DNA of 64,000 bases, taken from assembly GCA_000092065.1 (NCBI GenBank), contig CP000588.1; one strand, given 5' to 3'. Below, in pieces: positions 1-29,924 of this stretch. This DNA is from Ostreococcus lucimarinus. Its lineage: Eukaryota. Under the pieces are notes generated by a model, which was not told the DNA's origin, searched no databases, and saw only the letters and a program-made list of their open reading frames with translations. The translations under genes and the position numbers were made by a program. Every line of letters begins with the position of its first letter. Position 1 is the first letter of the stretch.

Positions 1-2906
1 CAGCCCCGGATGACGACGCGGAGAAGGTTTTGGATCGCGCGTGGTACGACGACGACGAGGGCGGCGGCGCGCACGGCGACGCGCACAACCCTTTTAACAC
101 GAACGCACGGGATGAGGCGCGTTACGCGAACAAAGAACAAGAATACGCGAAAAGGTTGACTCGACGCGACGGGTCGCTCATGTCCATGGCTGCGTCGCGA
201 CGCGTCAGTCAACTCAACGCCGATTCAAATCAATGGGAAGAAAATCGTATGATGACGTCCGGTGTGATTCGCACCAAGGAAATTGATTTGGATTTTGATG
301 ACATGGAAGAAAACCGCGCGGTTTTGCTCGTGCACGACACGAAACCGCCATTCTTAGACGGCCGTATGGTGTTCACGAAGCAGCAAGAGACTGTCGTACC
401 GGTGAAGGACGTCACGAGCGACATGGCGCAAATCGCGCGCAAAGGAAGCGCGTTGGTGAAGGAAGTGCGTACGAAGCGAGAGGAGAACAAAGGTCGGGAT
501 CGATTTTGGGAAATGAAAGGGTCGAAGATGGGATCGATCACGGGTACGACACAAGCTGAAAACAAGGAAGCCGCGGAAAACGCGCAAGCGGCGAAAGGTC
601 GCGATGACGACAGACCAGACGTCGTCGGCGCGGACGGCGAAATCGATTTCAAGGCTGGCGCCAAGTTTGCCGAGCACATGAAAGGTTCGAAGGCGAGCGC
701 ACAAAGCGAGTTCGCGAAGACGAAGACGATCAAAGAACAGCGTGAGTTCTTACCTGTGTACGGTTGTCGCGAAGACTTGATGCATGTCATTCGCGAAAAT
801 CAAATCGTAGTCGTCGTCGGCGAAACCGGAAGCGGTAAGACGACGCAAATGACGCAATACATGCACGAGGAAGGTTACTCCACATTCGGGATGGTCGGTT
901 GCACTCAACCCCGTCGTGTAGCTGCAATGAGCGTCGCGAAGCGTGTGAGCGAGGAAATGGGCTGTGAACTAGGTAAGGAAGTCGGTTACGCCATTCGATT
1001 CGAGGACTGCACGGGGCCTGATACGATTATCAAGTACATGACGGATGGCGTGCTTCTTCGAGAAACTTTGCGCGAACCTGATCTTAACATGTACAGCTGT
1101 ATCATCATGGACGAAGCGCACGAACGATCGTTACACACTGACGTTCTATTCGGTATTCTGAAGAAAGTTGTCGCGCGCCGTCGCGATTTCAAGCTCATCG
1201 TCACGTCGGCGACGTTGAACGCAGAAAAGTTTAGTAACTTCTTTGGATCGGTGCCGGTTTTCCACATTCCTGGTCGCACGTTCCCGGTCGATATTCTGTA
1301 CTCCAAGACACCCGTGGAGGATTACGTCGAAGCTGCGGTGAAGCAAGCGCTCACTGTGCATCTCTCGTCGGGACCGGGTGACATTTTGATCTTCATGACG
1401 GGTCAAGAAGAAATCGAGACGGTGACGTACACGTTGGAAGAGCGCGTCGAGCAGTTGATGAGCGAAGGCACGTGTCCACCGCTGAACGTTTTACCAATCT
1501 ACTCACAACTCCCGAGCGATTTGCAGGCGAAGATTTTTCAAGACGCAGAGGATGGTAACCGAAAGTGCATCGTCAGTACGAACATCGCGGAGACGTCGCT
1601 CACGCTCGACGGCGTCATGTACGTCATCGACAGTGGTTATTGCAAACTTTCAGTGTTTAATCCTCGAATGGGTATGAATGCTTTGCAAGTTTTCCCTTGC
1701 GCGCAAGCTGCGGTGAATCAACGCAGCGGCCGCGCCGGTCGTACTGGACCAGGGACGTGCTATCGCCTGTACACGGAGATGGCGTTCAAGCACGAAATGC
1801 TCGTCTCGACGGTTCCCGAGATTCAACGCACCAACTTGGGTAACGTCGTGTTACTTTTGAAGTCGCTCAACGTGGATAACTTGTTAGATTTTGACTTCAT
1901 GGATCCTCCTCCCCAAGAAAATATCTTGAACAGCATGTATTCCCTGTGGATTTTAGGCGCGCTCGACAACACTGGCGGGCTCACGAAACTCGGCTCGAAG
2001 ATGGTTGAGTTTCCCGTCGACCCGCCGCTGGCGCAGATGCTCATCAAAGCGGAAGAAACGGGCTGCTCGAACGAAATGCTCACCGTCGTCGCGATGTTAT
2101 CGGTTCCGTCAGTGTGGTTCAGGCCGAAGGATCGAGAGGAAGAATCCGACGCCGCGCGCGAAAAGTTCTTCGTTCCCGAAAGCGACCACTTGACGTTGCT
2201 CAACGTGTACCAGCAATGGAAAAATAACGGGTACAGGAACGATTGGTGCAACAAGCATTTCATTCAGGGCAAAGGTCTGAAGAAAGGTAGAGAGGTGCGC
2301 GCGCAATTGATGGATATCATGAAGCAACAGAAAATCCCGCTCGTGAGCTGTGGGCAAGATTGGGACGTCTGCCGTCGATCCATCGCCGCCGCGTACTTTC
2401 ATCAAGCGGCGCGTTTGAAAGGCGTCGGTGAGTATGTCAATGCTCGCAATGGTATGCCTTGCCACCTTCATCCGAGCTCAGCGCTTTATGGTCTGGGTTA
2501 CACTCCTGATTACGTCGTATACCACGAACTCATCATGACATCGAAAGAATACATGCAATGCGTCACCGCCGTCGAACCGCACTGGCTCGCCGAATTCGGA
2601 CCGATGTTTTTCACGCTCAAGGAGAGCCATTCGAGCATGTTGAAATCAAAGGCGAAGCGCAAAGAGGACAAGGCGAAGATGGAGGCTGAAATGCAAGCTA
2701 AACGCGATGAGGAAGCACAGCTGCAAGAAGCGCAGCGCACGCGAGAAGAAGATCGCCGCGCGAGACAAAGGAGTCAAATCGTGACGCCGGGGCAACGCAG
2801 CGCGGCGACGACGCCGCGCGTAGATTACGGAACGTCGCGTCCCCCATCGAGCGTTCGGCGCGGTGCGGGTGGCCGGACGCCGGGAAGAAAACGCTTTGGA
2901 CTATAG
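1..2906 (+). CDS. PRP16: Pre-mRNA-splicing factor ATP-dependent RNA helicase PRP16 (DEAH-box, DHX38 orthologue); 5' end truncated by the window edge (frame open back to nt 1)
   Basis: 958-aa ORF collinear with human DHX38 over almost its whole length ([41 protein letters not shown]-terminal TPGRKRFGL). No in-frame ATG at the ORF start; the first codon is TTG and the frame continues upstream. Confidence 0.92.
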
Positions 2907-2960
2907 ATAGGATTGTAGATTAGCTAATTTTAGACAACCATTACAACGTTTCTAGTCATC

Positions 2961-5405
2961 TCAGTTAGTGGTAACCGCTAAGCGCTTCAAATGATCCATG
3001 AACACTTGCAGACTCACGTCATCCGTGAAAATGATGTCCGATCCGCCACCCATCGTCGCGCTCGAGTTGTACGTCGCGCTCGGATTCAATTTGGCCAACA
3101 AAAAGCGCGCCTGAGAGCCGTGCTGATCGCAATCAACCAAACGCGGCACGGGGAATCTAGTGGCGATTATTTGTTCCGCCTCCGCCTTGGGCGCCGCGAG
3201 CAAGTCTTTGAACGCCACGTGCTCTGGCTGATCTTGATAGTTCGCCTTTCGCCACTGCGCGATCGTCATACCGTGGAAAACGACAACACTGAAGTAAGCG
3301 TCGAGGACCAAGATTTTGTCCGCGGCGATCGAGCACACGTCCAGCAATACGGGCTCGGGAGGACCGTTGAAGGAGTACGCCGTCAACGTGGGTTGAATCA
3401 TCACCAACGAATTGAAGACGTTTTCACGCATCAAAATCATGCGGAAATACGCCGTCTCGTCGGGCGAATTGTTGAACACTTGCACGAACTGCGATCGTCG
3501 CAAGTTGAACATGAACTGCGGGTAAATGCTAAATTGCGGCATGAGCTGAAACGAATGCGGATCGTCCTTTCTGTAATCGCCAAAGCGCTGGCACAGCTGG
3601 ATGAGCTTGCGATCGAGCCATCTCGTCGCCGCGGGGCAATCCGTTTCTTCCTCAGTCTCCATCTTCCAAGACAACTGCCTAGCGACGAGCACGGCTGCGG
3701 CTTCTTGATCGAACCCGGCGGCGATGTCGTTCAAATTTTGTCCTTCGGTCCAACGACGACTCGTCGTGATGACGCGCATGCGCGTCTCGCCGCTGGGGAG
3801 CGTGTACGTGCACAGAAATTGCAGGTAAAACTGTTGCGCTTGCTGCCCTTGCATGGCCATCGGCTGTTGATCTTTCCCACCCGGATTCGCAACATCAAAG
3901 TACACCGCCAGAGACGTTTCGTTCGTGAGTGTGCAAAGCTTCCACGCCGTCGTTCCGCCGCTACCGATGGGCGTGTCGCTCGTCGCGCCTGGCAAACCTT
4001 TTCGATCGAGCGCAGCGCATGGTCCGATCACCCCCGCTGTCCTCACGTCGCGGCTCGTGATTACTTCGAACTGTCCGTTGTACGCGATTCCCAATCCACC
4101 CTCAGCGTCTGGGGCGAAAAGTTTTTGAAACGACGTCTTGAACACGGTGTGCGAAAACGACTCAGCCAGCACGACGTTCCCGCCAGTCTTTTCCACGCAA
4201 ACTTTCATCTCCGCCAGTCCGACTTGATCGAGCGCGCACGCGAACACGTCCAACACGTGTCCATTCGCGCACAGGTTGATCGCCACCTGTTCGTAATACT
4301 TTTTGGCCTTGTGATAAAACGGCGCCGCGCCCTTGACTATGTCCTTGTGCGATCGCACCGCCTGCTCCATATCTTTCGCCACGATCGTTCCACCTCCATC
4401 CGTAGCCGCGCCGCCGGTGAATAACATCGCCCTCGCGTTCATCCCGATCGCGGACGTGGACAACAGACAAGACGCCACCATGAGCGCCGTGCCCGTGCAT
4501 CGCGACCGTCGGCACGACGGCAACGGCGCGAACGCGTCTCGCTGCAATTCCTCCAAAATCGCCGTAAACTGAAATTCACACTCGCTCAGCGGCACCAAGA
4601 ACTTGCTCGTCGGCATCGCTCCCGGGTGTGCGCCGTTCATCCCCGGCTGCGCGCCCGCCATCCCCGGAGCTCGACCGTTCGTCTGCCGGTGCCCGCCCCC
4701 GAGCGTCAACTGGTCCTTAATCTGCTGTTGCGTAAACTCCTTATTTCCCCGAAACACGTACGATTTCGGGCAATCCGCGAACCCCAACTCGTGCACGTGC
4801 ACGTGCGTCCCGAACGTCACCAACCCAACCCGCGCGTCCTCCGGCAACAGACTCAGCGCCTGCGTCAGCGCCTGCTTCAGCGCCGTCAACTCCTCCTCCT
4901 CCGCGCACGCGTCGACGACGAACAGATACCCCGGTCCGCATCCCGTCCCCTGTCCCGCTCGCGGCACCGCGTACTCTATCGTCGTGTAGCTCGGGAACAG
5001 CTCCGCCGGCAGATTCGTCTCGCTCAGCGCGTTGTAGTGCGGCGGAAAGTGATTCCTCGCGTGGCACAGGCAGCACACCCAGATCTTGCTCGCGAAATCC
5101 ACCCTCGCGTACGGGTTCAGCCCCCCCCCGCACCCCTTGCACCGCACGCACTCGTACGGCACGCGCGGCGCGACCTCCGACGCGATCTCTCGCAGCGGCG
5201 TGACGACCGCGCCGAACGGCACGACGCACTTCGTCATCTCGGCTCGCGAATTCGCCACCACGTTCCACGACATTCGCACGCCGTCGCACGCCTCCAGCGC
5301 GCTCCAATCCACGCCCGCGCGCGCGACATCGTTGGCGCTCCGCGCGCGCGCCGCGGGGTCGTCGCGCGACGCCATGACGGCGTCGTCGTGTGCCGATCGA
5401 CGCAT
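2961..5405 (-). CDS. SEC23: COPII coat protein Sec23
   Basis: 817-aa ORF collinear with Sec23A (zinc-finger CxxC..CxxC, trunk, beta-sandwich, helical and gelsolin-like regions; C-terminal [18 protein letters not shown]). First ATG at 5405; alternative ATG at 5375. Confidence 0.92.
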
Positions 5406-22938: not shown

Positions 22939-23739
22939 CTAAATCTCTTCCTCTCGCGTGAAATCGAGCGTCACACGTCCCTCGTCGTCGCTTTCGTCGT
23001 CGACGATGCTCCCGGTTCGCTCCATGCGCTCGACGAGCGTTCGCGTCAACGCGTCGTCCTCGAACGGCACATCGCGAAACAACGACGCGCTCGAACTTCT
23101 GTACAGCACGCTCACGAAAATTGCCGAGTGTCCGCGCGCGGGATCGCCCTCGCTCACGACGCGAAACCGCCAATCCAACCCCAGCCTCGTCGTCTCGCGT
23201 TTTAGAAATACAAATCTCGCCACGGCTGAGAACGACACGCTCAAGATTATCCCGTCCTCTCTCGTCATACGCAACATCTCATCCATGAGCGCGCGCTTAT
23301 CTTCGTCTCCGTTGAGCGCGTCCAACGTACCCTTATCGATCACGCACGTCGCGCTTCCGTCCGCGACGTCGGCTCGACAGTCCCGGCAATCCGCCGCGCG
23401 ACACCGCACCCGCGCGTCCTCCGCGTACCGCGCCCGCAGCACCTCGATCACCCGTTCGCTCACGTCCAACAGCACGACGTCACCCCTAAACCCGTACTCA
23501 TCCGCCGCGTCGACGCCGATGCTCGACGATCCGCACCCGACGTCGACGAGCGCCGCCGCGCCCGCCGCGCTCGCGCTCGCCGCCGCCCGCAGAAACCCAT
23601 CCGCGACCTCGAAGCACGCCTCCGACGCCGCGTGCCACTCGCGCGCGAGCTGCGACGCCGAATCGTACACCCCGTCCCAGTGCGCGGCGTACGCGCGCGC
23701 CGACGTCCCCTCGGCGCCGGCGTCGTCGCGTCGCGACAT
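22939..23739 (-). CDS. Class I SAM-dependent methyltransferase, EEF1A lysine methyltransferase 4 (ECE2-MT)-like
   Basis: Motif I LVDVGCGSSS, VLLDVS, VIDKGTLDAL. Collinear with EEF1AKMT4. ATG at 23737-23739. Confidence 0.65.
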   Translation of the reverse strand: MSRRDDAGAEGTSARAYAAHWDGVYDSASQLAREWHAASEACFEVADGFLRAAASASAAGAAALVDVGCGSSSIGVDAADEYGFRGDVVLLDVSERVIEVLRARYAEDARVRCRAADCRDCRADVADGSATCVIDKGTLDALNGDEDKRALMDEMLRMTREDGIILSVSFSAVARFVFLKRETTRLGLDWRFRVVSEGDPARGHSAIFVSVLYRSSSASLFRDVPFEDDALTRTLVERMERTGSIVDDESDDEGRVTLDFTREEEI

Positions 23740-23989
23740 TCCCGACAGCTTCCGAAACCACCCTTCGCGCGACGTTCGCGTCGCCGCCCGCGCGCCCGCG
23801 TCGTCGCGCGCGCGCCCGCGACCTCACGCACACCGTCGCGCGCTCGCGCGCGCGCGCGCGCGTCCCGAATCGCCCCGCGCGCGCGCCGATCCCGTCGCGA
23901 AGCCGCGTCCCGGTGTCCCGACATCGTCGCGAGACGTCGTCGTTCCGGCGTCACTCCGTCGCGCGTCGCGATCGCGTCGCGATTCCGCG

Positions 23990-25312
23990 ATGCCGCGAAG
24001 CGCGCGAAAAGAATCCTTCTACGCCGTCGCGCGCGGGCGCGCGCGCGGCGTGTACACGACGTGGGACGACGCGAAGAAGCAGGTGCAAAACTTTGGGGGC
24101 GCGATGCACAAGGTGCGACGACATCGGACGACGACGGCGCGCGCGACGCGCGACGCGCCCTCGCGACGGCGCGAACGCGCGAAGACTAATTTTTCGCACT
24201 CGAATTCGCGCGCGCAGAAATTCGCGACGCTGGACGAGGCGCGGGCGTACCTGGAGGCGCATCGGGGGGACGACGCGACCGACGGCGGCGTAACGGCTCG
24301 AACGGTCGAGGCGACGCGCGACGACGACGGAATTCGCGACGGCGACGCGACGGAGAGCGCGAGATCGGCGAACGAAGACGCGCGAGTGATGGAGAAAAAA
24401 GTGAGCGCGCGTAAGCGCGGGACTTCGGGGGGACGAGGGATGTCGACGCGCGCGGGGGAGGACGCGGAGGACGGGATCGAGGCGCGCGTGCGAGCGCTCG
24501 CGAGCGCGGCGAACGCGCCGAAGGAGGATCGGAGCGAGGATGAGTACGTGTTGGAGTTCGACGGGGCGAGTCGTGGGAATCCGGGGGAGGCGGGGGCGGG
24601 GGCACTGCTGCGAAGGAAGCGGGACGATCGAATCGTGGAGGAGTTGTTGGAGTATTTGGGGAACGAGCGGACGGTGAACGAAGCCGAGTACGCGGCGCTG
24701 TGCTTGGGGTTGCGCAAGGCGGTGGAGCTCGGGATCACGAAGATTGAGGTGCGAGGGGACAGTAAACTCATCGTGAATCAAGTTGAAGGATCGTTCAAGC
24801 TGAAGTCGGCGAATTTGAAGTCCATGCACGCCGAAGCGTGCGAGTTGAAGGAAAAGTTTACCGAGTTTAAGATCTCTCACGTCAAGCGCGAGTTTAACAA
24901 ACACGCCGATCATTTGGCCAACATGGCGGTGGACTTCGGGCTTAGCCCGAGTCGAATGTCCGGCGATGCGTCCACGTCTGCGACGAAGCGGTTCGAGAGC
25001 GGTGGTGGGGGTTTGGGCGGAGGCGGGGACGACGCCGACGCGAAGCGGCGCAAGCTCGGCGGCGAACAGCGTTACGCGCGCCTCTTCCGCTCCTTCGCCG
25101 GCGGTGCGGCGGCGGCGCCCACGCGTCTGGGACGTGGGTATCACGCATACGCGCGCGCATCGGTGTCACACGATGGTGAGGCTTCGAACATGGCGTCCGG
25201 AGCTCCCTTGGTTGTCGGCGGTGGAGCGTCGCGCGTCGCGCTCGCCTCGGCTCGACGATCGTGGATTCCTCTCACGCGCGCCGCCATGGGTTTCGCGCGG
25301 CTTCGTTTATGA
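23990..25312 (+). CDS. RNH1: Ribonuclease H1 (N-terminal hybrid-binding domain plus RNase H domain)
   Basis: HBD KESFYAVARGRARGVYTTWDDAKKQVQNFGGAMHK...KFATLDEARAYL. RNase H domain EFDGASRGNPGEAGAGALL...EAEYAALCLGLRKAVELGITKIEVRGDSKLIVNQVEG...HADHLAN. The C-terminal tail is low complexity and its end is uncertain. Confidence 0.75.
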   Translation: MPRSARKESFYAVARGRARGVYTTWDDAKKQVQNFGGAMHKVRRHRTTTARATRDAPSRRRERAKTNFSHSNSRAQKFATLDEARAYLEAHRGDDATDGGVTARTVEATRDDDGIRDGDATESARSANEDARVMEKKVSARKRGTSGGRGMSTRAGEDAEDGIEARVRALASAANAPKEDRSEDEYVLEFDGASRGNPGEAGAGALLRRKRDDRIVEELLEYLGNERTVNEAEYAALCLGLRKAVELGITKIEVRGDSKLIVNQVEGSFKLKSANLKSMHAEACELKEKFTEFKISHVKREFNKHADHLANMAVDFGLSPSRMSGDASTSATKRFESGGGGLGGGGDDADAKRRKLGGEQRYARLFRSFAGGAAAAPTRLGRGYHAYARASVSHDGEASNMASGAPLVVGGGASRVALASARRSWIPLTRAAMGFARLRL

Positions 25313-25382: not shown

Positions 25383-28361
25383 TCACACCGCCGAGTCGTC
25401 GTCATCGTCGGCGGAAACTTCCGAAACGGGGACGCGGCGAGTCGGCTTGACGATTTCTTCGTACGCCTCGCCGGTTTGCGGTTGCGTCACCTTGATCGGA
25501 CGCGGAAATCGCTGCACGACATCCCGTCGAACCGGCGACTCGTCTTCATCCGAGCTCGGCGAGCTCGGCGAGCTCGGCGGGATTTCGGATGAAACCGAGA
25601 CGCTTCGCACGTGCGGTTGACGCGTCTTTGAGGCGAGCAGCGGCGCGCGTTCCGCGACGCCCGGCGACATTCTTCGAACTTGTCTCGGCGGTAACTGCCC
25701 AAAGAACATATCGCCGCCCGTCACCGCGGTCGGCCACTTGCTCGCAACGGTCATCAAGGCCAAAGCGAGGATGACGACGGCTAAGGCAACGCTCAATTCG
25801 GCGGACGATTGTTGAAACCATCGTTGCATGGCGTTGCCGTGCAAGTGCGCGTGCTGGTGCTCGTGGAACCTGTGCGCGGCGCGCCTCAAATGTTGCGGTC
25901 GGGCGAGTGCGGACGCGTCGTCTTCCGTTTGAAGAACTGGTTTGATTACCACGTGCGAGTGCGCACACGGTTCTGCAACGAATGAGCACGATGCGAACCT
26001 CGTCGGCGTGCAATCAAACACCGCCGCCAAAAAGGCCGTTTTCGCCGCGTCTTCCTTTGAGCGCGGACATTTTCGAACTTGTCTACACTCAAGATCGTCA
26101 CTCGCAAAACCTCGCTTGCCGATCACTTCACCACACTGCTGCACAATGCCCGTGTGCGGGCATCCAAGTCCAGCGCGCGAGTGCATCGCGGAACACGCGT
26201 CAGCGGCTTGCTCGGACGATCCGAGCGCGCTGGCGTCGACGTCAAAGCACGTCGCTTGCGACGTCTTCGTGTTCGGGCACCCGCACACGCAAGATCCACG
26301 CATTGAATGCGGGACAACGTGCGTATCACCGAGTTTTGGCAAGGAAAACGTGCCGTCATCGGCGTCTTCTTTGGTGTCGCCACGCCTATTGTCCTCGAAA
26401 TCAATTTTCTCCGAGGCGCGAAGACCGATGCTGCGCATCTTTTCAGAGACGCCGCTCATGACGGAGGAAAGATCGTCGATGGCGTTCGGTTTCGCACGGT
26501 GTGCGGCGACCGAGCCGAGATCACTTCCCTTGTTCTTTGACGCGCCGAAACCGACGTCTTCATCGCCCTTCAACGGAGGAAGCGTCGCCTTACGCCAAGA
26601 GTCCAACTGCTGTAACGCCTGCTTACCCGTCTCTTCAATCTTGTTGACAGCTTCGAGGTACTCTGCCGCGGCGACGTCTTCTGCTTGCGCACGCTGAGCT
26701 ACATTTGTAATTGACTGCGCCGCACGCATAGCCTTTTGGTATTTTTCGCGCGTTTGCTTCAACGCTTTGCGATAATCCTTCTGCACTCCGGCTTCAAACT
26801 TTTTGTACTCGCGTTCTTGCATTTGACGCGCGTATTCAATCTGACGCTTCTCGTACTCCTCCGCGGCTAAGTCGCCAGGACTTGGCATTGGTAACCGAAA
26901 CGTCGTCGGTTTCATCTCGCCAGCGTCGCCGGGAGCCTCGTACGTCGCGTGATCGTCGTGAATTAATCCATCCTTCTTCGCCTCGCCCCCCATGACTTCC
27001 GTGATGGCTTCGCGCACGGCGTCGAGAATACTGCTCGACGCGCCCTCGCTCGAGCCTTCGCTCGCCACGCGATCGTCGCTATCTGTGCTATGCTTTTTTG
27101 AATGTTTCGATGCCTTCTTTTCCTCCCATCTGTGCCAGTCATGCTCGAGCGCGGCGGTGCGTTTTGACTTTTTCGTCGGCGAGTCCAACTCCACCGGCTT
27201 CAGCGCGCCGCCCATGGCAGACCAGATCGTGCGCATCAAATACGCATCGTCTCTTCGACCGCTACCCACCTTGGCGACGACATCCGAGGGTGCCACTGGA
27301 CACGCAGGTGATCCGGGCGCTGTGCGTCCCAGAGTGACCACCACCGTCTTCGTCTCCGGCAACATGAAAATCATCGATCCTTCATCGCCCAAGCTCACAG
27401 CCACGGGCGCGTGCGGAGCGTTTCTCCCGAGTATCGGCCCACTGATGGCTTCTGCACTCATTCCGCACGACGTTTTCGTCGTTCGCGGTGCGCAGCATTG
27501 CGTCCCGGTTGCGCTCACCGGGACGTGAAGCCACGTCATCAAGCCGTGCGCTTGGTTGAGCGACGGATAACTCACCGACAACGCCGATACCGCAAAGGTG
27601 GGATCAAACATCTGTCGCGTGCTCCCATCGACGCTCGTCCACCTTCCTTGGTTCACGAATAACTGTCCGAGCTTGGCGGCGTCGCGACAAGACATTCGCA
27701 AATCTCTCCAAAGTGACGCGCCGTCGTTCCCGTCCGCCCTAGACGAGCTCGCAAACATCTCCGGCGCGCCGAGTTTTTCCCCGACATTCACGCGCGCCCA
27801 TTCCGAGAGCTTCATCCCACTTCTCAACTCAATTATGTCACCGACTATATCCAAGAACCCATCATTTCTCGGGTCGTCGCGTTCGAACGTCGTCCCCGGT
27901 TCGCGCGAACCGCCGCCGTGCGTCTGCGCCAACAGCTGTCGCACGCTCACCTTATCCGCGTACGCCCCGAACGCCTCCTCAACCGAGCGCAAGTCGTACT
28001 TCGACAACGGCGCGTCTAACTCAAACAATCCTTGCTGCACCGCGACGCCGACCGCCGCGACCAGCGCGAGCGCGCCGACGCCATCCGTCGTCGTTTGGGT
28101 GTTGGCGTCGTTCGCGCCGTAGTAGGACTCGTGCACGATCGCCCCATCCTTCGCCACGAGGAAGCAATCTCGCGAGACGATCGTTTCAACGTTGCTCGAA
28201 GCTTCCTCGAGCGCGTTCGTGCTCAGGCCGTGCAGTTCAGCGCGTTCGACGATCCACGGGCGCGCGCCGGGGGCACCGGACGCGCGCGGTGTCGACGCGC
28301 TCGCGTGCGCGCTGGCGCAGCACAGCGCCGCGGCGAGCGCGCAGGCGAGCGCACGACGCAT
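25383..28361 (-). CDS. Membrane-anchored beta-lactamase-fold (PF00144-like) protein, probably catalytically inactive; signal peptide, Cys-rich module, single TM, acidic Ser/Pro tail
   Basis: Signal peptide MRRALACALAAALCCASAHASA. Beta-lactamase/esterase fold pattern (VSVRQLLAQTHGGGS, EPGTTF, MKLSEWARVNVGEKLG, GDEGSMIFMLPETKTVVVTLGR). The SxxK position reads GALA. TM LSVALAVVILALALMTVA near the C-terminus. Confidence 0.6.
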   Translation of the reverse strand: MRRALACALAAALCCASAHASASTPRASGAPGARPWIVERAELHGLSTNALEEASSNVETIVSRDCFLVAKDGAIVHESYYGANDANTQTTTDGVGALALVAAVGVAVQQGLFELDAPLSKYDLRSVEEAFGAYADKVSVRQLLAQTHGGGSREPGTTFERDDPRNDGFLDIVGDIIELRSGMKLSEWARVNVGEKLGAPEMFASSSRADGNDGASLWRDLRMSCRDAAKLGQLFVNQGRWTSVDGSTRQMFDPTFAVSALSVSYPSLNQAHGLMTWLHVPVSATGTQCCAPRTTKTSCGMSAEAISGPILGRNAPHAPVAVSLGDEGSMIFMLPETKTVVVTLGRTAPGSPACPVAPSDVVAKVGSGRRDDAYLMRTIWSAMGGALKPVELDSPTKKSKRTAALEHDWHRWEEKKASKHSKKHSTDSDDRVASEGSSEGASSSILDAVREAITEVMGGEAKKDGLIHDDHATYEAPGDAGEMKPTTFRLPMPSPGDLAAEEYEKRQIEYARQMQEREYKKFEAGVQKDYRKALKQTREKYQKAMRAAQSITNVAQRAQAEDVAAAEYLEAVNKIEETGKQALQQLDSWRKATLPPLKGDEDVGFGASKNKGSDLGSVAAHRAKPNAIDDLSSVMSGVSEKMRSIGLRASEKIDFEDNRRGDTKEDADDGTFSLPKLGDTHVVPHSMRGSCVCGCPNTKTSQATCFDVDASALGSSEQAADACSAMHSRAGLGCPHTGIVQQCGEVIGKRGFASDDLECRQVRKCPRSKEDAAKTAFLAAVFDCTPTRFASCSFVAEPCAHSHVVIKPVLQTEDDASALARPQHLRRAAHRFHEHQHAHLHGNAMQRWFQQSSAELSVALAVVILALALMTVASKWPTAVTGGDMFFGQLPPRQVRRMSPGVAERAPLLASKTRQPHVRSVSVSSEIPPSSPSSPSSDEDESPVRRDVVQRFPRPIKVTQPQTGEAYEEIVKPTRRVPVSEVSADDDDDSAV

Positions 28362-28496
28362 CGTACGCGTGTGCGGTGTCGACGCGCGGCGTCGCATCGC
28401 GCGCGCGCCGAGTTGTGCCGCGATGGATCAGGCGGAAGTGCAAGTATAATACAATGTGTGCGCTCGCGCGAGCGGCTAGAATGCGGCGCGACGGCG

Positions 28497-29924
28497 TTAG
28501 AGGTTGGAGAGGCGAGGTCGCGCGAGTTCGGCTTCGCTTGGATCCCACGATATAATTTTCCCGGGATTCATGATGTTGAGCGGATCGAGCGCGCGCTTGA
28601 TTCGGCGCTGGATATCCACGTGCGCCACACCGTGCTCCATGATGATGTACTTTTGTTTTCCGATGCCGACGCCGTGTTCGCCGGAGGCGGAGCCGCCCAT
28701 AGCGATGGCGTTCCCGATGACTTTGTCTTCGAGCGCCAACAAGGCGGCGCGTTCGTGCTCTTGAAAGGGTATGAGACAGTGGAAGTTGCCGTCGGCGATG
28801 TGCGCGCAAATGACGCACGGAAACCGCGCTTTTTTGAACTCGAGCTCCGTGGCCGCGATGCACGCCGAAAGTTTGGACGCCGGAACGCACACGTCTCCAA
28901 CGTACACGCTCTCCTTCGCGTTCGTCCCCGCTTCTAATCCGCGATAGCGCATCGCGCCTAGATAACATCCACGTCTCGCGTCCCACAGCTCGTCCAACTC
29001 CTCGCCGTTTGACGCGAAATCGTGAGACGCGCTCCCGTTCGACTTCGCGATGCGAAGAAAACTTTCCCAATCCTCCTCCATCTCGCCCTGCCGATTCCCC
29101 ACAAACTCTAAAAACAGCGTCGGCACGCACGGTAAAGACGTTTGAAACACCACATTCGTCACTTTAATCCCTTCGTCGTTCATCAACTCGCATCGAAGCA
29201 ACGTCGACAGATTCGCCGCCGTCGCCTCAGCCACCGTCTTCCCCGCCGCCCCGACGGTCGGAAATCGCACGATGGCGCCGCATCGCCGCTTCGGCAGCGG
29301 AACAATCTTCACCACCAGCTCCACGATCACCCCCAGCGTGCCCTCCGCGCCTAAATAGAGCGCGTTCAGCTCGTAACCGGTGCTCGATTTCCGAACCTCG
29401 GCGCGCGTCCGAATGATTTCCCCATCCGGCGTCACCACCGTCATGCTTCGCACGTTCTCCTTCGTCGTTCCGTACTTCAGCGTGCTCAGCCCGCTCCCTC
29501 CCGTGCTCGCCATCCCTCCCAGCGTCGGATTCGAGCTCGGATCCGGCCCGAACGCGAATCCGCGCTTCGCCAGCGCCGCGTTCAGCTCGCTCTTCAGCGC
29601 CCCCGCGCCGACTCTCGCGCACATGTTCGCCTCGTCGATCTCGATCGCGCGCAACATTCGCGTGTCCAACACGCACCCTCCGCCGTACGCGACGGCGCCG
29701 CCCTCGAGCCCCGTGCCCGCGCCGCGCGCGACGATGGGTCGTCGGTGCCTCGCGCACGTCCGGACGATCGCCGCCACCTCCTCGACCGTTCGCGGCGCGC
29801 ACACCGCGTCCGGCCGCGCGCCGGCGTGCGCGCCCATGTCTCGCGCGCGCGCGTCGAGCGCCGCGGCGTCCGCGCGCGTGTCCGCGCACGCGCGTCGCAA
29901 ATCATCGAGCCACGACCGGGACAT
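28497..29924 (-). CDS. DLD: D-lactate dehydrogenase (cytochrome) / FAD-linked oxidase GlcD family, mitochondrial-type
   Basis: FAD-binding PCMH domain (PIVARGAGTGLEGGAV), C-terminal FAD-oxidase_C (GGSASGEHGVGIGKQKYI, LDPLNIMNPGKI). ATG at 29922-29924. Confidence 0.8.
   Translation of the reverse strand: MSRSWLDDLRRACADTRADAAALDARARDMGAHAGARPDAVCAPRTVEEVAAIVRTCARHRRPIVARGAGTGLEGGAVAYGGGCVLDTRMLRAIEIDEANMCARVGAGALKSELNAALAKRGFAFGPDPSSNPTLGGMASTGGSGLSTLKYGTTKENVRSMTVVTPDGEIIRTRAEVRKSSTGYELNALYLGAEGTLGVIVELVVKIVPLPKRRCGAIVRFPTVGAAGKTVAEATAANLSTLLRCELMNDEGIKVTNVVFQTSLPCVPTLFLEFVGNRQGEMEEDWESFLRIAKSNGSASHDFASNGEELDELWDARRGCYLGAMRYRGLEAGTNAKESVYVGDVCVPASKLSACIAATELEFKKARFPCVICAHIADGNFHCLIPFQEHERAALLALEDKVIGNAIAMGGSASGEHGVGIGKQKYIIMEHGVAHVDIQRRIKRALDPLNIMNPGKIISWDPSEAELARPRLSNL

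Follow-up and report, generated by a model that had tools for sequence, protein, structure and literature searches.

A predicted type I membrane protein of Ostreococcus lucimarinus with a strongly conserved beta-lactamase-like domain that appears to be catalytically dead

The closest described systems for the protein analyzed here are class C beta-lactamase/PBP-like serine hydrolases, namely Lsa45 of Leptospira (8dc1), the 6-aminohexanoate-dimer hydrolase NylB (1wyb/2zm7), PIB-1 of P. aeruginosa (8rlj), and AmpC/ADC, with which it shares the fold and a detectable sequence family. Similar to PF00144 enzymes, it has LLxQT-x-GG, PGT-x-F, the CRD-x-A-[KR]-x-GQL-x-xN-x-G-x-W helix, and the beta3-beta5 sheet; unlike them, this algal protein has neither the Ser-x-x-Lys nucleophile/base pair nor the Tyr, lacks (as do all its protist relatives) some 25 residues that would separate the HTSG-like segment from the Tyr motif, carries six conserved Cys in the domain, and is predicted to be a type I membrane protein of a eukaryote that also bears a Cys-rich module. 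Well-known pseudoenzymes with a hydrolase fold retained for binding exist among proteases, kinases, and amidases; non-catalytic PGRPs and chitinase-like lectins are pseudoenzyme receptors derived from hydrolases. So are the iRhom pseudoproteases (PMC3149277, PMC6451368). In iRhom-type receptors, selection has kept the fold after catalytic loss, and with new domains these proteins have taken on roles in binding, trafficking, or regulation; their fold is unrelated to that of the algal protein. Literature searches (with accession numbers, Ostreococcus plus beta-lactamase, and dead class-C/PBP-fold domains) yielded nothing relevant, and no described case of a dead class-C beta-lactamase/PBP-fold pseudoenzyme in eukaryotes was found in the literature searched. 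The architecture, which a first-pass annotation of this DNA had not recognised, is likewise undescribed there, but is not unique to O. lucimarinus, which belongs here to the catalytically dead branch of a protist family that is widespread and has no name.

The window (the whole stretch of 64,000 nucleotides that was analyzed) contains the gene as one uninterrupted ORF, with the following features.

25383..28361, minus strand: complete single-exon CDS, 992 aa plus stop (ORF list)
28293..28361, minus strand: putative signal-peptide-like N-terminus, aa 1-23, MRRALACALAAALCCASAHASAS (hydropathy of 1.69 at aa 4-22; followed by an ectodomain with 18 conserved Cys)
27198..28256, minus strand: beta-lactamase/PBP-fold domain (PF00144-like), aa 36-388, with 6 invariant Cys (Pfam, PDB profile search, AF2, Foldseek)
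26865..27197, minus strand: acidic/basic linker, aa 389-499, poorly conserved (mean identity among orthologues 38%; dN/dS 0.23)
26571..26864, minus strand: charged, Tyr-punctuated helical-type segment, aa 500-597, conserved (identity 69%; dN/dS 0.09)
26298..26570, minus strand: variable linker, aa 598-688 (identity 21%; dN/dS 0.19)
25962..26297, minus strand: 12-Cys module, aa 689-800 (GSCxCxCP...C...C...CPxxG[IV]V..C...C.....C...C...C...C), common to catalytically intact protist relatives
25836..25874, minus strand: His-rich juxtamembrane stretch HRFHEHQHAHLHG, aa 830-842 (Ostreococcus-type orthologues only)
25734..25802, minus strand: single predicted transmembrane helix, aa 854-876 (hydropathy maximum 2.57; orthologue identity 67%)
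25386..25733, minus strand: predicted cytosolic tail, aa 877-992, rich in Ser and Pro and acidic at the C-terminus (identity 30%; dN/dS 0.69), fast-evolving except for short motifs
25635..25652, minus strand: acidic dileucine [DE]xxxL[LI] sorting-type motif E904-R-A-P-L-L909 (E904 and L908 invariant in alignment A1)
25491..25511, minus strand: second conserved tail motif R-F-P-R-P-I-K, aa 951-957 (Ostreococcus-type only)

The sequence is that of the "predicted protein" XP_001419422.1 of O. lucimarinus CCE9901 (UniProt A4S1T5; an exact match in a sequence-cluster look-up). An upstream in-frame ATG at 28397 is an alternative start, which adds 12 amino acids, MRRRASTPHTRT, and gives a 1004-aa form. 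The first-pass annotation gave a length of 990 aa, and all strings quoted in it (LLAQTHGGGS, EPGTTF, GDEGSMIFMLPE..VVVTLGR, CVCGCPNTK, CGEVIGKRGF, CRQVRKCP, and HRFHEHQHAHLHG) are found in the translation. The signal-peptide and transmembrane assignments are Kyte-Doolittle hydropathy heuristics, by which aa 4-22 and, strongly, aa 854-876 stand out, in agreement with the signal peptide and one TM helix noted before. The Lys/Glu-rich region, earlier described as coiled, is indeed charged and conserved at aa 500-597, but its coiled character is not confirmed: a simple heptad count peaks at 0.54 in its best register, with 0.39 as background, a weak signal. This segment has no significant Pfam match, nor do the C-terminal 600 aa in Pfam and NCBIfam searches (BLOC1_2, E=0.13; NCBIfam matches at chance level); a word-indexed profile search with the Cys module returned four fragments only and is uninformative.

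Membership in the PF00144 fold, as claimed in the first-pass annotation, is supported by both profile and model. The Pfam profile scores 36.3 bits, above its gathering score of 27 (E=4.6e-9); the match runs over aa 80-358 in the 1004-aa form and over positions 20-309 in the profile, which has 329. The AF2 model (pTM 0.74; weak, with pLDDT below 50, at aa 147-166, which include the former Tyr motif) predicts a two-domain alpha/beta plus all-alpha fold like that of solved PF00144 members. Foldseek with this model retrieves Lsa45 (8dc1, E=9.5e-13, probability 1.00), and also NylB, PIB-1, and class C ADC enzymes; of 367 PDB chains at E<=1e-3, the best 50 are all beta-lactamase-fold chains.

The positions at which the active enzymes carry their catalytic and family motifs are predicted as follows.

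28071..28082, minus strand: former Ser-x-x-Lys site, G94-V95-G96-A97, start of helix alpha2 (SVVK in 8rlj, SVTK in 8dc1, D-S-x-x-K-T in 63 relatives)
27873..27881, minus strand: former Tyr-x-Asn/Ser site, R161-D162-D163 (YSN in 8dc1, YNN in 4gb7, Y-D-S in active relatives, Tyr 100%)
27699..27710, minus strand: position of the family G-G-G-Q, W218-R-D-L221 (G-G-G-Q conserved in 94-96% of active relatives; divergence analysis)
27546..27548, minus strand: position of the second family Tyr (Y-G-x-L-T-W, 100% in active relatives), H272 (divergence analysis)
27390..27404, minus strand: strand beta3, V320-A-V-S-L324, with K/H-T/S-G absent (DSSP of the AF2 model)

Profile alignments with three PDB templates (8rlj, 8dc1, and 4gb7) place Ser at G94, Lys at A97, and Tyr at R161, and hmmalign with 150 relatives sets D-S-x-x-K-T over D-G-V-G-A-L and F-T-Y-D-S over F-E-R-D-D, the mapping being one of sequence-profile alignment. 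At aa 50-140 the only Lys residues are K71, K121, and K137; as there is none between aa 72 and 120, no alignment register rescues SxxK. Y-x-N is absent from the whole protein. Three independent lines, namely the profiles of solved enzymes, the 63 motif-intact relatives, and the lack of Lys near the start of helix alpha2, confirm that Ser, Lys, and Tyr have been lost from the catalytic positions. Both losses had been proposed in the first-pass annotation and hold, although its readings of the sites are displaced, G-A-L-A (G96-A99) by two residues and E-R-D by one; an intact Ser-x-x-Lys elsewhere in the domain, which would have overturned its proposal, was sought, and none is usable. Class C enzymes carry K-T-G on strand beta3; the missing K/H-T/S-G box is not diagnostic here, because the motif-intact protist relatives also lack it.

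Several other candidate assignments were considered and rejected. S181-G-M-K184, the only S-x-x-K in the domain, follows the Tyr motif, within the helix whose usual sequence is "sGks", and orthologues do not conserve it. The BLASTP register against P0162 (T92/V95, with a two-residue gap inside helix alpha2) gives no Ser plus Lys, and neither do the AmpC-like spacing D93/G96 and the register G96/A99. D326-E327, as a replacement of the K-T-G box, falls in the beta3-beta4 hairpin turn, off beta3, in the AF2 secondary structure.

A word-indexed homologue search yields Mamiellales-type sequences only, whereas an exhaustive profile search reveals a wider protist family, with 88 representatives matching the BL-like domain at E<1e-30. 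The family combines this domain with a 12-14-Cys module that follows it and, often, a C-terminal TM helix; examples from EukProt are Biecheleria cincta (P013079/P0162), Gymnodinium smaydae (P023143/P0184), Sulcionema specki (P015208/P0151), and Diaphanoeca grandis (P039718/P0160). The BL domain of the O. lucimarinus protein is homologous to theirs (31% identity with P0162 over 377 aa, E=8e-37), and the Cys module after it has the conserved pattern GSCxCxCP...CPxxG[IV] in common with them; the module is present in at least 24 motif-intact relatives, and its alignment A4 (22 sequences) shows 6 invariant Cys plus 5 others that at least 90% of the sequences keep. By these comparisons, the BL-like domain appears to belong with the protist "BL-like + Cys-module" family rather than with bacterial PF00144 members.

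Other members of the family keep the catalytic residues. In 63 closer motif-intact relatives, including dinoflagellates, a diplonemid, and a choanoflagellate, Ser, Lys, and Tyr are conserved in 100%, S163 in 98%, GGGQ in 94-96%, and Y272 in 100%; that is, the active relatives retain D-S-x-x-K-T, Y-D-S, GGGQ, and Y-G-x-L-T-W, which the Ostreococcus protein does not. In 11 dead-clade sequences, the residues of D-S-x-x-K-T, Y-D-S, GGGQ, and Y272 are all replaced or variable, and no member has Ser and Lys together: position 94 varies freely (G, S, A, T, N, D), and position 97 varies as well. Residues newly invariant in this clade are H148, H279, N269, S329, R346, and R370-D-D. In the NJ tree (computed without support values), the dead clade adjoins the clade having Ser, Lys, and Tyr plus the Cys module, with Cys-less sequences that have the triad outside. 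Judging from these alignments, Ostreococcus, Bathycoccus, and related Mamiellales-type lineages form a catalytically dead branch of a protist-wide family. The branch also differs in proportions: the link between the two modules is about 40-200 aa in active relatives, but a stalk of about 300 aa in Ostreococcus and longer in Bathycoccus and the P0023 group, and the Ostreococcus protein has a cytosolic tail of about 116 aa, as against 14-31 aa in active TM-bearing relatives.

The dead domain, the Cys module, and the helical segment are under strong purifying selection. As estimated from one unsaturated pair (dS 0.17-0.33; the partner is P0046, of the same 90% cluster as P0004), dN/dS is 0.098 in the BL domain (dN 0.016, dS 0.165) and 0.065 in the Cys module, whereas the linkers reach 0.19-0.23 and the tail 0.69; the BL domain is 75% identical among orthologues, vs. 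21-38% in the linkers. The dead state is kept across Ostreococcus-type lineages, Bathycoccus, and others. With catalytic residues lost and purifying selection kept, the domain classifies as a pseudoenzyme in the operational sense of the term, and the phrase "pseudo-enzyme or ligand-binding module" of the first-pass annotation fits both observations. Very probably, then, this N-terminal domain, predicted to lie in the lumen or outside the cell, does not act as a serine hydrolase and is instead a pseudoenzyme that remains conserved and functional; since the catalytic residues are lost yet the domain is strongly conserved, its most likely role is that of a binding module, derived from an uncharacterised family of enzymes that marine protists widely possess.

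The tail motif points to trafficking. E-x-x-P-L-L is found in 8/8 Ostreococcus-type sequences and also in P0023, P0024, and P0139; ERAPLL, ERVPLL, EKAPLL, ESAPLL, or EREPLL occur in 11 of 12 Mamiellales-type dead-clade tails, the exception being Bathycoccus, which has no clean copy. TM-bearing active relatives carry YxxPhi or (E)xPL[LI] motifs in their short tails. By a rough estimate, [DE]xxxL[LI] is expected by chance in a 116-aa tail about once per five tails; it is the conservation of ERAPLL alone that gives it weight. LIMP-2 (SCARB2) is a two-pass protein that shares with ERAPLL the [DE]xxxL[LI] pattern with Pro before the leucines; only this short linear motif is in common, without homology. 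The LIMP-2 signal, DERAPLI, is of the same kind and serves AP-1/AP-3 sorting (PMC5297682).

Taken together, these features suggest the following model. The former substrate cleft would have become a putative non-catalytic binding site, whose ligand, by descent, might be peptide- or ester-like; a long stalk, consisting of the two linkers with the helical segment between them and of the disulfide-rich module, would keep the cleft at a distance from the membrane; and the cytosolic ERAPLL may couple the protein to clathrin-adaptor trafficking, i.e., endocytosis or endosomal/vacuolar delivery. In that case the protein would be no enzyme, but a receptor for binding or sorting. We consider it rather probable that the gene product is a glycoprotein-like receptor of type I membrane topology, as a joint claim with the pseudoenzyme, binding, and trafficking roles; the part concerning binding and the trafficking receptor, which derives from motifs, is tentative, its chances being slightly short of even.

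Since a decaying pseudogene, or a beta-lactamase-like gene and a Cys-rich membrane gene misread as one ORF, might mimic such an unusual architecture, and long spurious ORFs do arise in high-GC genomes, the integrity of the gene has to be considered. The reading frame is unbroken over 2979 nt; full-length collinear orthologues occur in at least five Ostreococcus-type lineages, in Bathycoccus (Mamiellales), and in others, as found in the orthologue search that the first-pass annotation had called for; gene order around the orthologues is conserved in a synteny comparison; overall dN/dS is 0.15-0.20; and the BL-like domain and the Cys module are fused also in transcripts of distant protists (dinoflagellate, diplonemid, choanoflagellate). 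The artefact, of negligible probability, is already refuted by these ORF, orthologue, synteny, and dN/dS data, and the two halves, which the first-pass annotation had allowed might be separate genes, are one gene.

Given one gene, the domain might still be an enzyme with a non-serine apparatus, e.g., a metal or His/Asp site formed by H148 and H279 with D93, D162, and D163. The His of QTHGG (mostly Ser in active relatives) and of TWLH (mostly Asn) are invariant in the dead clade, invariant Asp residues flank the Tyr-motif position, and purifying selection is as strong as in a working enzyme; however, the active family already has D93 and D162, which are thus inherited and not new, the nucleophile position 94 and position 97 vary freely in the clade, and we know of no PF00144 member that works without the Ser/Lys pair, which makes such an enzyme very unlikely. 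The fold might instead be a stable scaffold, with neither a small-ligand pocket nor cargo sorting, in a structural or adhesive surface or endomembrane protein (cell-cell, cell-bacterium, or virus attachment, or a surface coat). The long stalk, variable linkers, and disulfide-rich module are typical of surface proteins, Lsa45, the best structural match, is listed among leptospiral adhesins, and the protein is plentiful in assemblies of marine metagenomes and metatranscriptomes (a sequence cluster of 271 members); a dN/dS of 0.10 over the whole domain (367 aa) and clade-specific invariant polar residues are hard to square with a scaffold, though, and the conserved adaptor-type tail motif suggests regulated trafficking, so we regard it as unlikely. 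The scaffold overlaps the binding-receptor model, ligand specificity being the sole difference.

A more specific form of the binding-receptor model, which we find quite unlikely as it stands, is that of a new eukaryotic receptor class, with a dead PBP/beta-lactamase-fold ectodomain for a peptide- or ester-type ligand, a stalk, a disulfide-rich fold not seen before, and AP-dependent dileucine internalisation. Its ectodomain would descend from a digestive or cell-wall-peptide hydrolase of phagotrophic protists, and candidate ligands would be bacterial cell-wall peptides and other D-amino-acid-containing molecules; such a receptor would let non-phagotrophic picoalgae sense, bind, or take up bacterial material, and might be a virus docking site. 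Both Ostreococcus and Bathycoccus are abundant primary producers in the sea and have very small gene sets, hence a large and strongly conserved protein, predicted to sit at the surface or in endomembranes, is a reasonable candidate for interactions with bacteria, viruses, and dissolved organic matter. The analysis also exposes an uncharacterised two-module family across at least four eukaryotic supergroups, with a 12-14-Cys module that has no solved structural relative. As dozens of protist relatives have the same architecture with intact catalytic residues, "resurrection" and loss-of-function experiments should be straightforward.

The gene at 25383..28361 (minus strand) encodes a single-pass membrane protein whose beta-lactamase/PBP-fold domain (BL domain, aa 36–388) lacks the serine-hydrolase machinery and is under purifying selection. 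The protein belongs to a protist-wide family, other members of which, judged by their motifs, look catalytically competent. The gene is part of a single ORF of 1004 codons at 25383..28397 (minus strand); begun at the second ATG (28361), it yields 992 aa, the form used here for residue numbers. This translation is identical to XP_001419422.1/UniProt A4S1T5 from Ostreococcus lucimarinus CCE9901 (named 'predicted protein', 'Beta-lactamase-related domain-containing protein', or 'CubicO group peptidase'), and all peptide strings cited in the first-pass annotation are found in the ORF. G+C of the window is ~65%, in keeping with the O. lucimarinus genome. The in-frame upstream ATG (28362..28397, minus strand) adds 12 residues, MRRRASTPHTRT, and is used by P0001, an assembly-derived protein of 1004 aa, while the NCBI model begins at 28361; the N-termini of orthologues are too variable to choose between the two starts. 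The neighboring genes are:

22958..25312, plus strand, RNase H gene with a caulimovirus-type N-terminal domain, convergent, its stop 70 bp from that of the gene
28497..29924, minus strand, FAD-linked oxidase (D-lactate-dehydrogenase-like), its stop ~100–135 bp upstream of the gene's start

A Kinase-PPPase gene lies beyond the FAD-linked oxidase. The alternative that the N- and C-terminal halves are separate genes, raised in the first-pass annotation, is refuted, since the reading frame is uninterrupted, orthologues are collinear along the full length, the order FAD-linked oxidase, studied gene, convergent RNase H is the same in three other Ostreococcus-type contigs, and the BL domain and the 12-Cys module (aa 689–800) co-occur in distant protists.

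Pfam assigns the protein to PF00144 (36.3 bits, gathering score 27, E=4.6e-9). The domain profile of eight orthologues matches PIB-1 (8rlj), Lsa45 (8dc1), an NylB-like hydrolase (4gb7), and Pab87 (2qmi) in PDB; the AlphaFold2 model of the domain (mean pLDDT 68, pTM 0.74) matches Lsa45 with E=9.5e-13, and reaches probability 1.0 against NylB, PIB-1, and class C ADC enzymes as well. HMMER alignments to S-V-V-K of 8rlj and S-V-T-K of 8dc1 place G94 at the nucleophile Ser and A97 at the Lys; those to Y-S-N of 8dc1 and Y-N-N of 4gb7 place R161 at the Tyr and D163 at the third residue of the motif. The catalytic loss read earlier by eye as G-A-L-A and E-R-D is thus upheld by profile alignments, which correct its registers by two and one residues, respectively. 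At the sequence level, the loss stands in any alignment register, because the only lysines within aa 50–140 are K71, K121, and K137, Y-x-N is absent from the entire protein, and the sole S-x-x-K of the domain, at S181, is rejected as a catalytic motif, being misplaced and unconserved. Strand beta3 reads V-A-V-S-L where class C enzymes carry K-T-G, and the AlphaFold2 model has G-D-E-G-S in the hairpin turn that comes next. K-T-G is absent also from motif-intact protist relatives, hence, the third box is not diagnostic here.

The word-indexed search retrieves Mamiellales-type homologues only: several Ostreococcus-type lineages (48–67% identity), Bathycoccus, and a third group of 1468–1583 aa. 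The exhaustive profile search yields 6208 proteins at E<=1e-3, 88 of them at E<=1e-30. In the alignment to the profile, Ser, Lys, and Tyr all occupy the catalytic positions in 97 of the best 150 of these 6208 matches, where they lie within the motifs D-S-x-x-K-T and F-T-Y-D-S. The same C-terminal Cys module is present in at least 24 of the 97, and a C-terminal TM helix in some. Named motif-intact members are the dinoflagellates Biecheleria cincta (31% identity to the Ostreococcus domain over 377 aa, E=8e-37, BLASTP) and Gymnodinium smaydae, the diplonemid Sulcionema specki, and the choanoflagellate Diaphanoeca grandis. The B. cincta protein P0162 (947 aa) has a PF10503 PHB-depolymerase-type esterase domain (25.9 bits, cut-off 23) before its motif-intact BL-like domain and Cys module; P0164 has a similar ~390-aa N-terminal extension with no Pfam match.

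In a rough neighbor-joining tree without support values, Mamiellales-type sequences form one clade, motif-intact Cys-module proteins form an adjoining clade, and Cys-less motif-intact sequences fall outside. Close to the Mamiellales-type clade in this unsupported tree is another group lacking S/K/Y, made up of P0145/154/157 together with P0148/150; its catalytic loss may be common to that clade or independent. P0145, P0154, and P0157 (~1030–1070 aa), and P0148 and P0150 (~800 aa) constitute two more groups with BL-like domain, Cys module, and TM helix, and lack Ser, Lys, and Tyr in various combinations, e.g., SxxS with L, GxxR with A, or GxxK with D.

We compared 11 Mamiellales-type sequences without catalytic residues (the dead clade) with 63 active relatives. 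Ser94, Lys97, Tyr161, and Tyr272 (100% each), Ser163 (98%), and G-G-G-Q at 218–221 (94–96%) are conserved in active relatives, and all are variable or replaced in the dead clade. None of the 11 has Ser and Lys together; partial states are Ser with Thr (P0005) and Gly with Lys (P0002). Conserved in both sets are 38 core positions, including D93, D162, and five cysteines. Newly invariant in the dead clade are H148, H279, N269, S329, R346, R370-D-D, and W380; N269, S329, R346, and R370-D-D are, like the two histidines, invariant there only, i.e., constraint has been gained.

27918..27920, minus strand, H148, mostly Ser in active relatives
27525..27527, minus strand, H279, mostly Asn in active relatives

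Table. Constraint by region: mean pairwise identity of seven Ostreococcus-type orthologues; Nei–Gojobori dN/dS for one unsaturated pair, P0005 and P0046.
BL domain: identity 75%; dN/dS 0.098 (dN 0.016, dS 0.165)
Cys module: identity 79%; dN/dS 0.065
Helical segment: identity 69%; dN/dS 0.093
Linkers: identity 21–38%; dN/dS 0.19–0.23
Tail: identity 30%; dN/dS 0.69

By these measures, the dead BL domain is not decaying, but is maintained by purifying selection. Its cleft would be kept as a putative binding site. The main rival explanation is a possible non-serine catalytic site made of the newly invariant histidines, H148 and H279; the AlphaFold2 model is poor around aa 147–166. As for the origin of this putative binding domain, the named active relatives belong to phagotrophic or mixotrophic lineages, and P0162 bears an additional esterase domain; speculatively, therefore, the ancestor may have served as a hydrolase anchored in the membrane, either digestive or acting on cell-wall peptides, of which the picoalgal branch may have retained recognition only.

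Hydropathy shows one strong membrane segment (aa 854–876, maximum 2.57) and a hydrophobic N-terminus (aa 4–22), a pattern that we take to indicate a signal peptide and type I topology. Of the 18 invariant cysteines in the ectodomain, the enzyme-like domain contributes six and the C-terminal module 12. No N-x-S/T sequon occurs in all 992 residues, despite the predicted passage through the secretory pathway, whereas sequons are numerous in dinoflagellate and other relatives. Pfam and NCBIfam give no significant match to the C-terminal 600 aa. Relative to the active proteins, a long insertion separates the two modules in the Mamiellales type. In Ostreococcus it measures ~300 aa and runs from a variable linker through a conserved charged helical segment to another linker. 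Near the membrane lies a His-rich stretch:

25836..25874, minus strand, HRFHEHQHAHLHG, aa 830–842, ~12 residues outside the TM helix

This stretch, which may bind a metal, is confined to the Ostreococcus type, most orthologues of which share the pattern AAH[RK]F-x-[ED]H-x-H; Bathycoccus and the third group lack it.

The 116-aa tail is fast-evolving save for two motifs, E904-x-x-P-L-L909, seen in 8/8 Ostreococcus-type sequences (EREPLL in the third group), and R-F-P-R-P-I-K, confined to the Ostreococcus type. Tails of TM-bearing active relatives are 14–31 aa and end in YxxPhi (YVTL, YLAL, YVSL, YDHL) or in (E)EPLL, QEPLI, or QAPLL. ERAPLL of the studied protein matches the acidic dileucine consensus [DE]xxxL[LI] and is closely similar to the LIMP-2 signal DERAPLI, which directs AP-1/AP-3 sorting (PMC5297682). 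Clathrin adaptors would thus be candidates for trafficking the protein.

The gene is present in public databases under an automatic name only, and our literature search yielded no publication that treats either this gene or any catalytically dead eukaryotic domain of the class-C/PBP fold. Pseudoenzymes as such are already known; what is added is an uncharacterised protist family and a cysteine module without a solved relative.

Elsewhere in the window, G+C is 0.53–0.55 at 1..4000 vs. ~0.65 across the remainder. Two long ORFs are seen here, the second extending beyond this region:

30..2906, plus strand, ORF of 958 aa
2991..4424, plus strand, ORF of 477 aa
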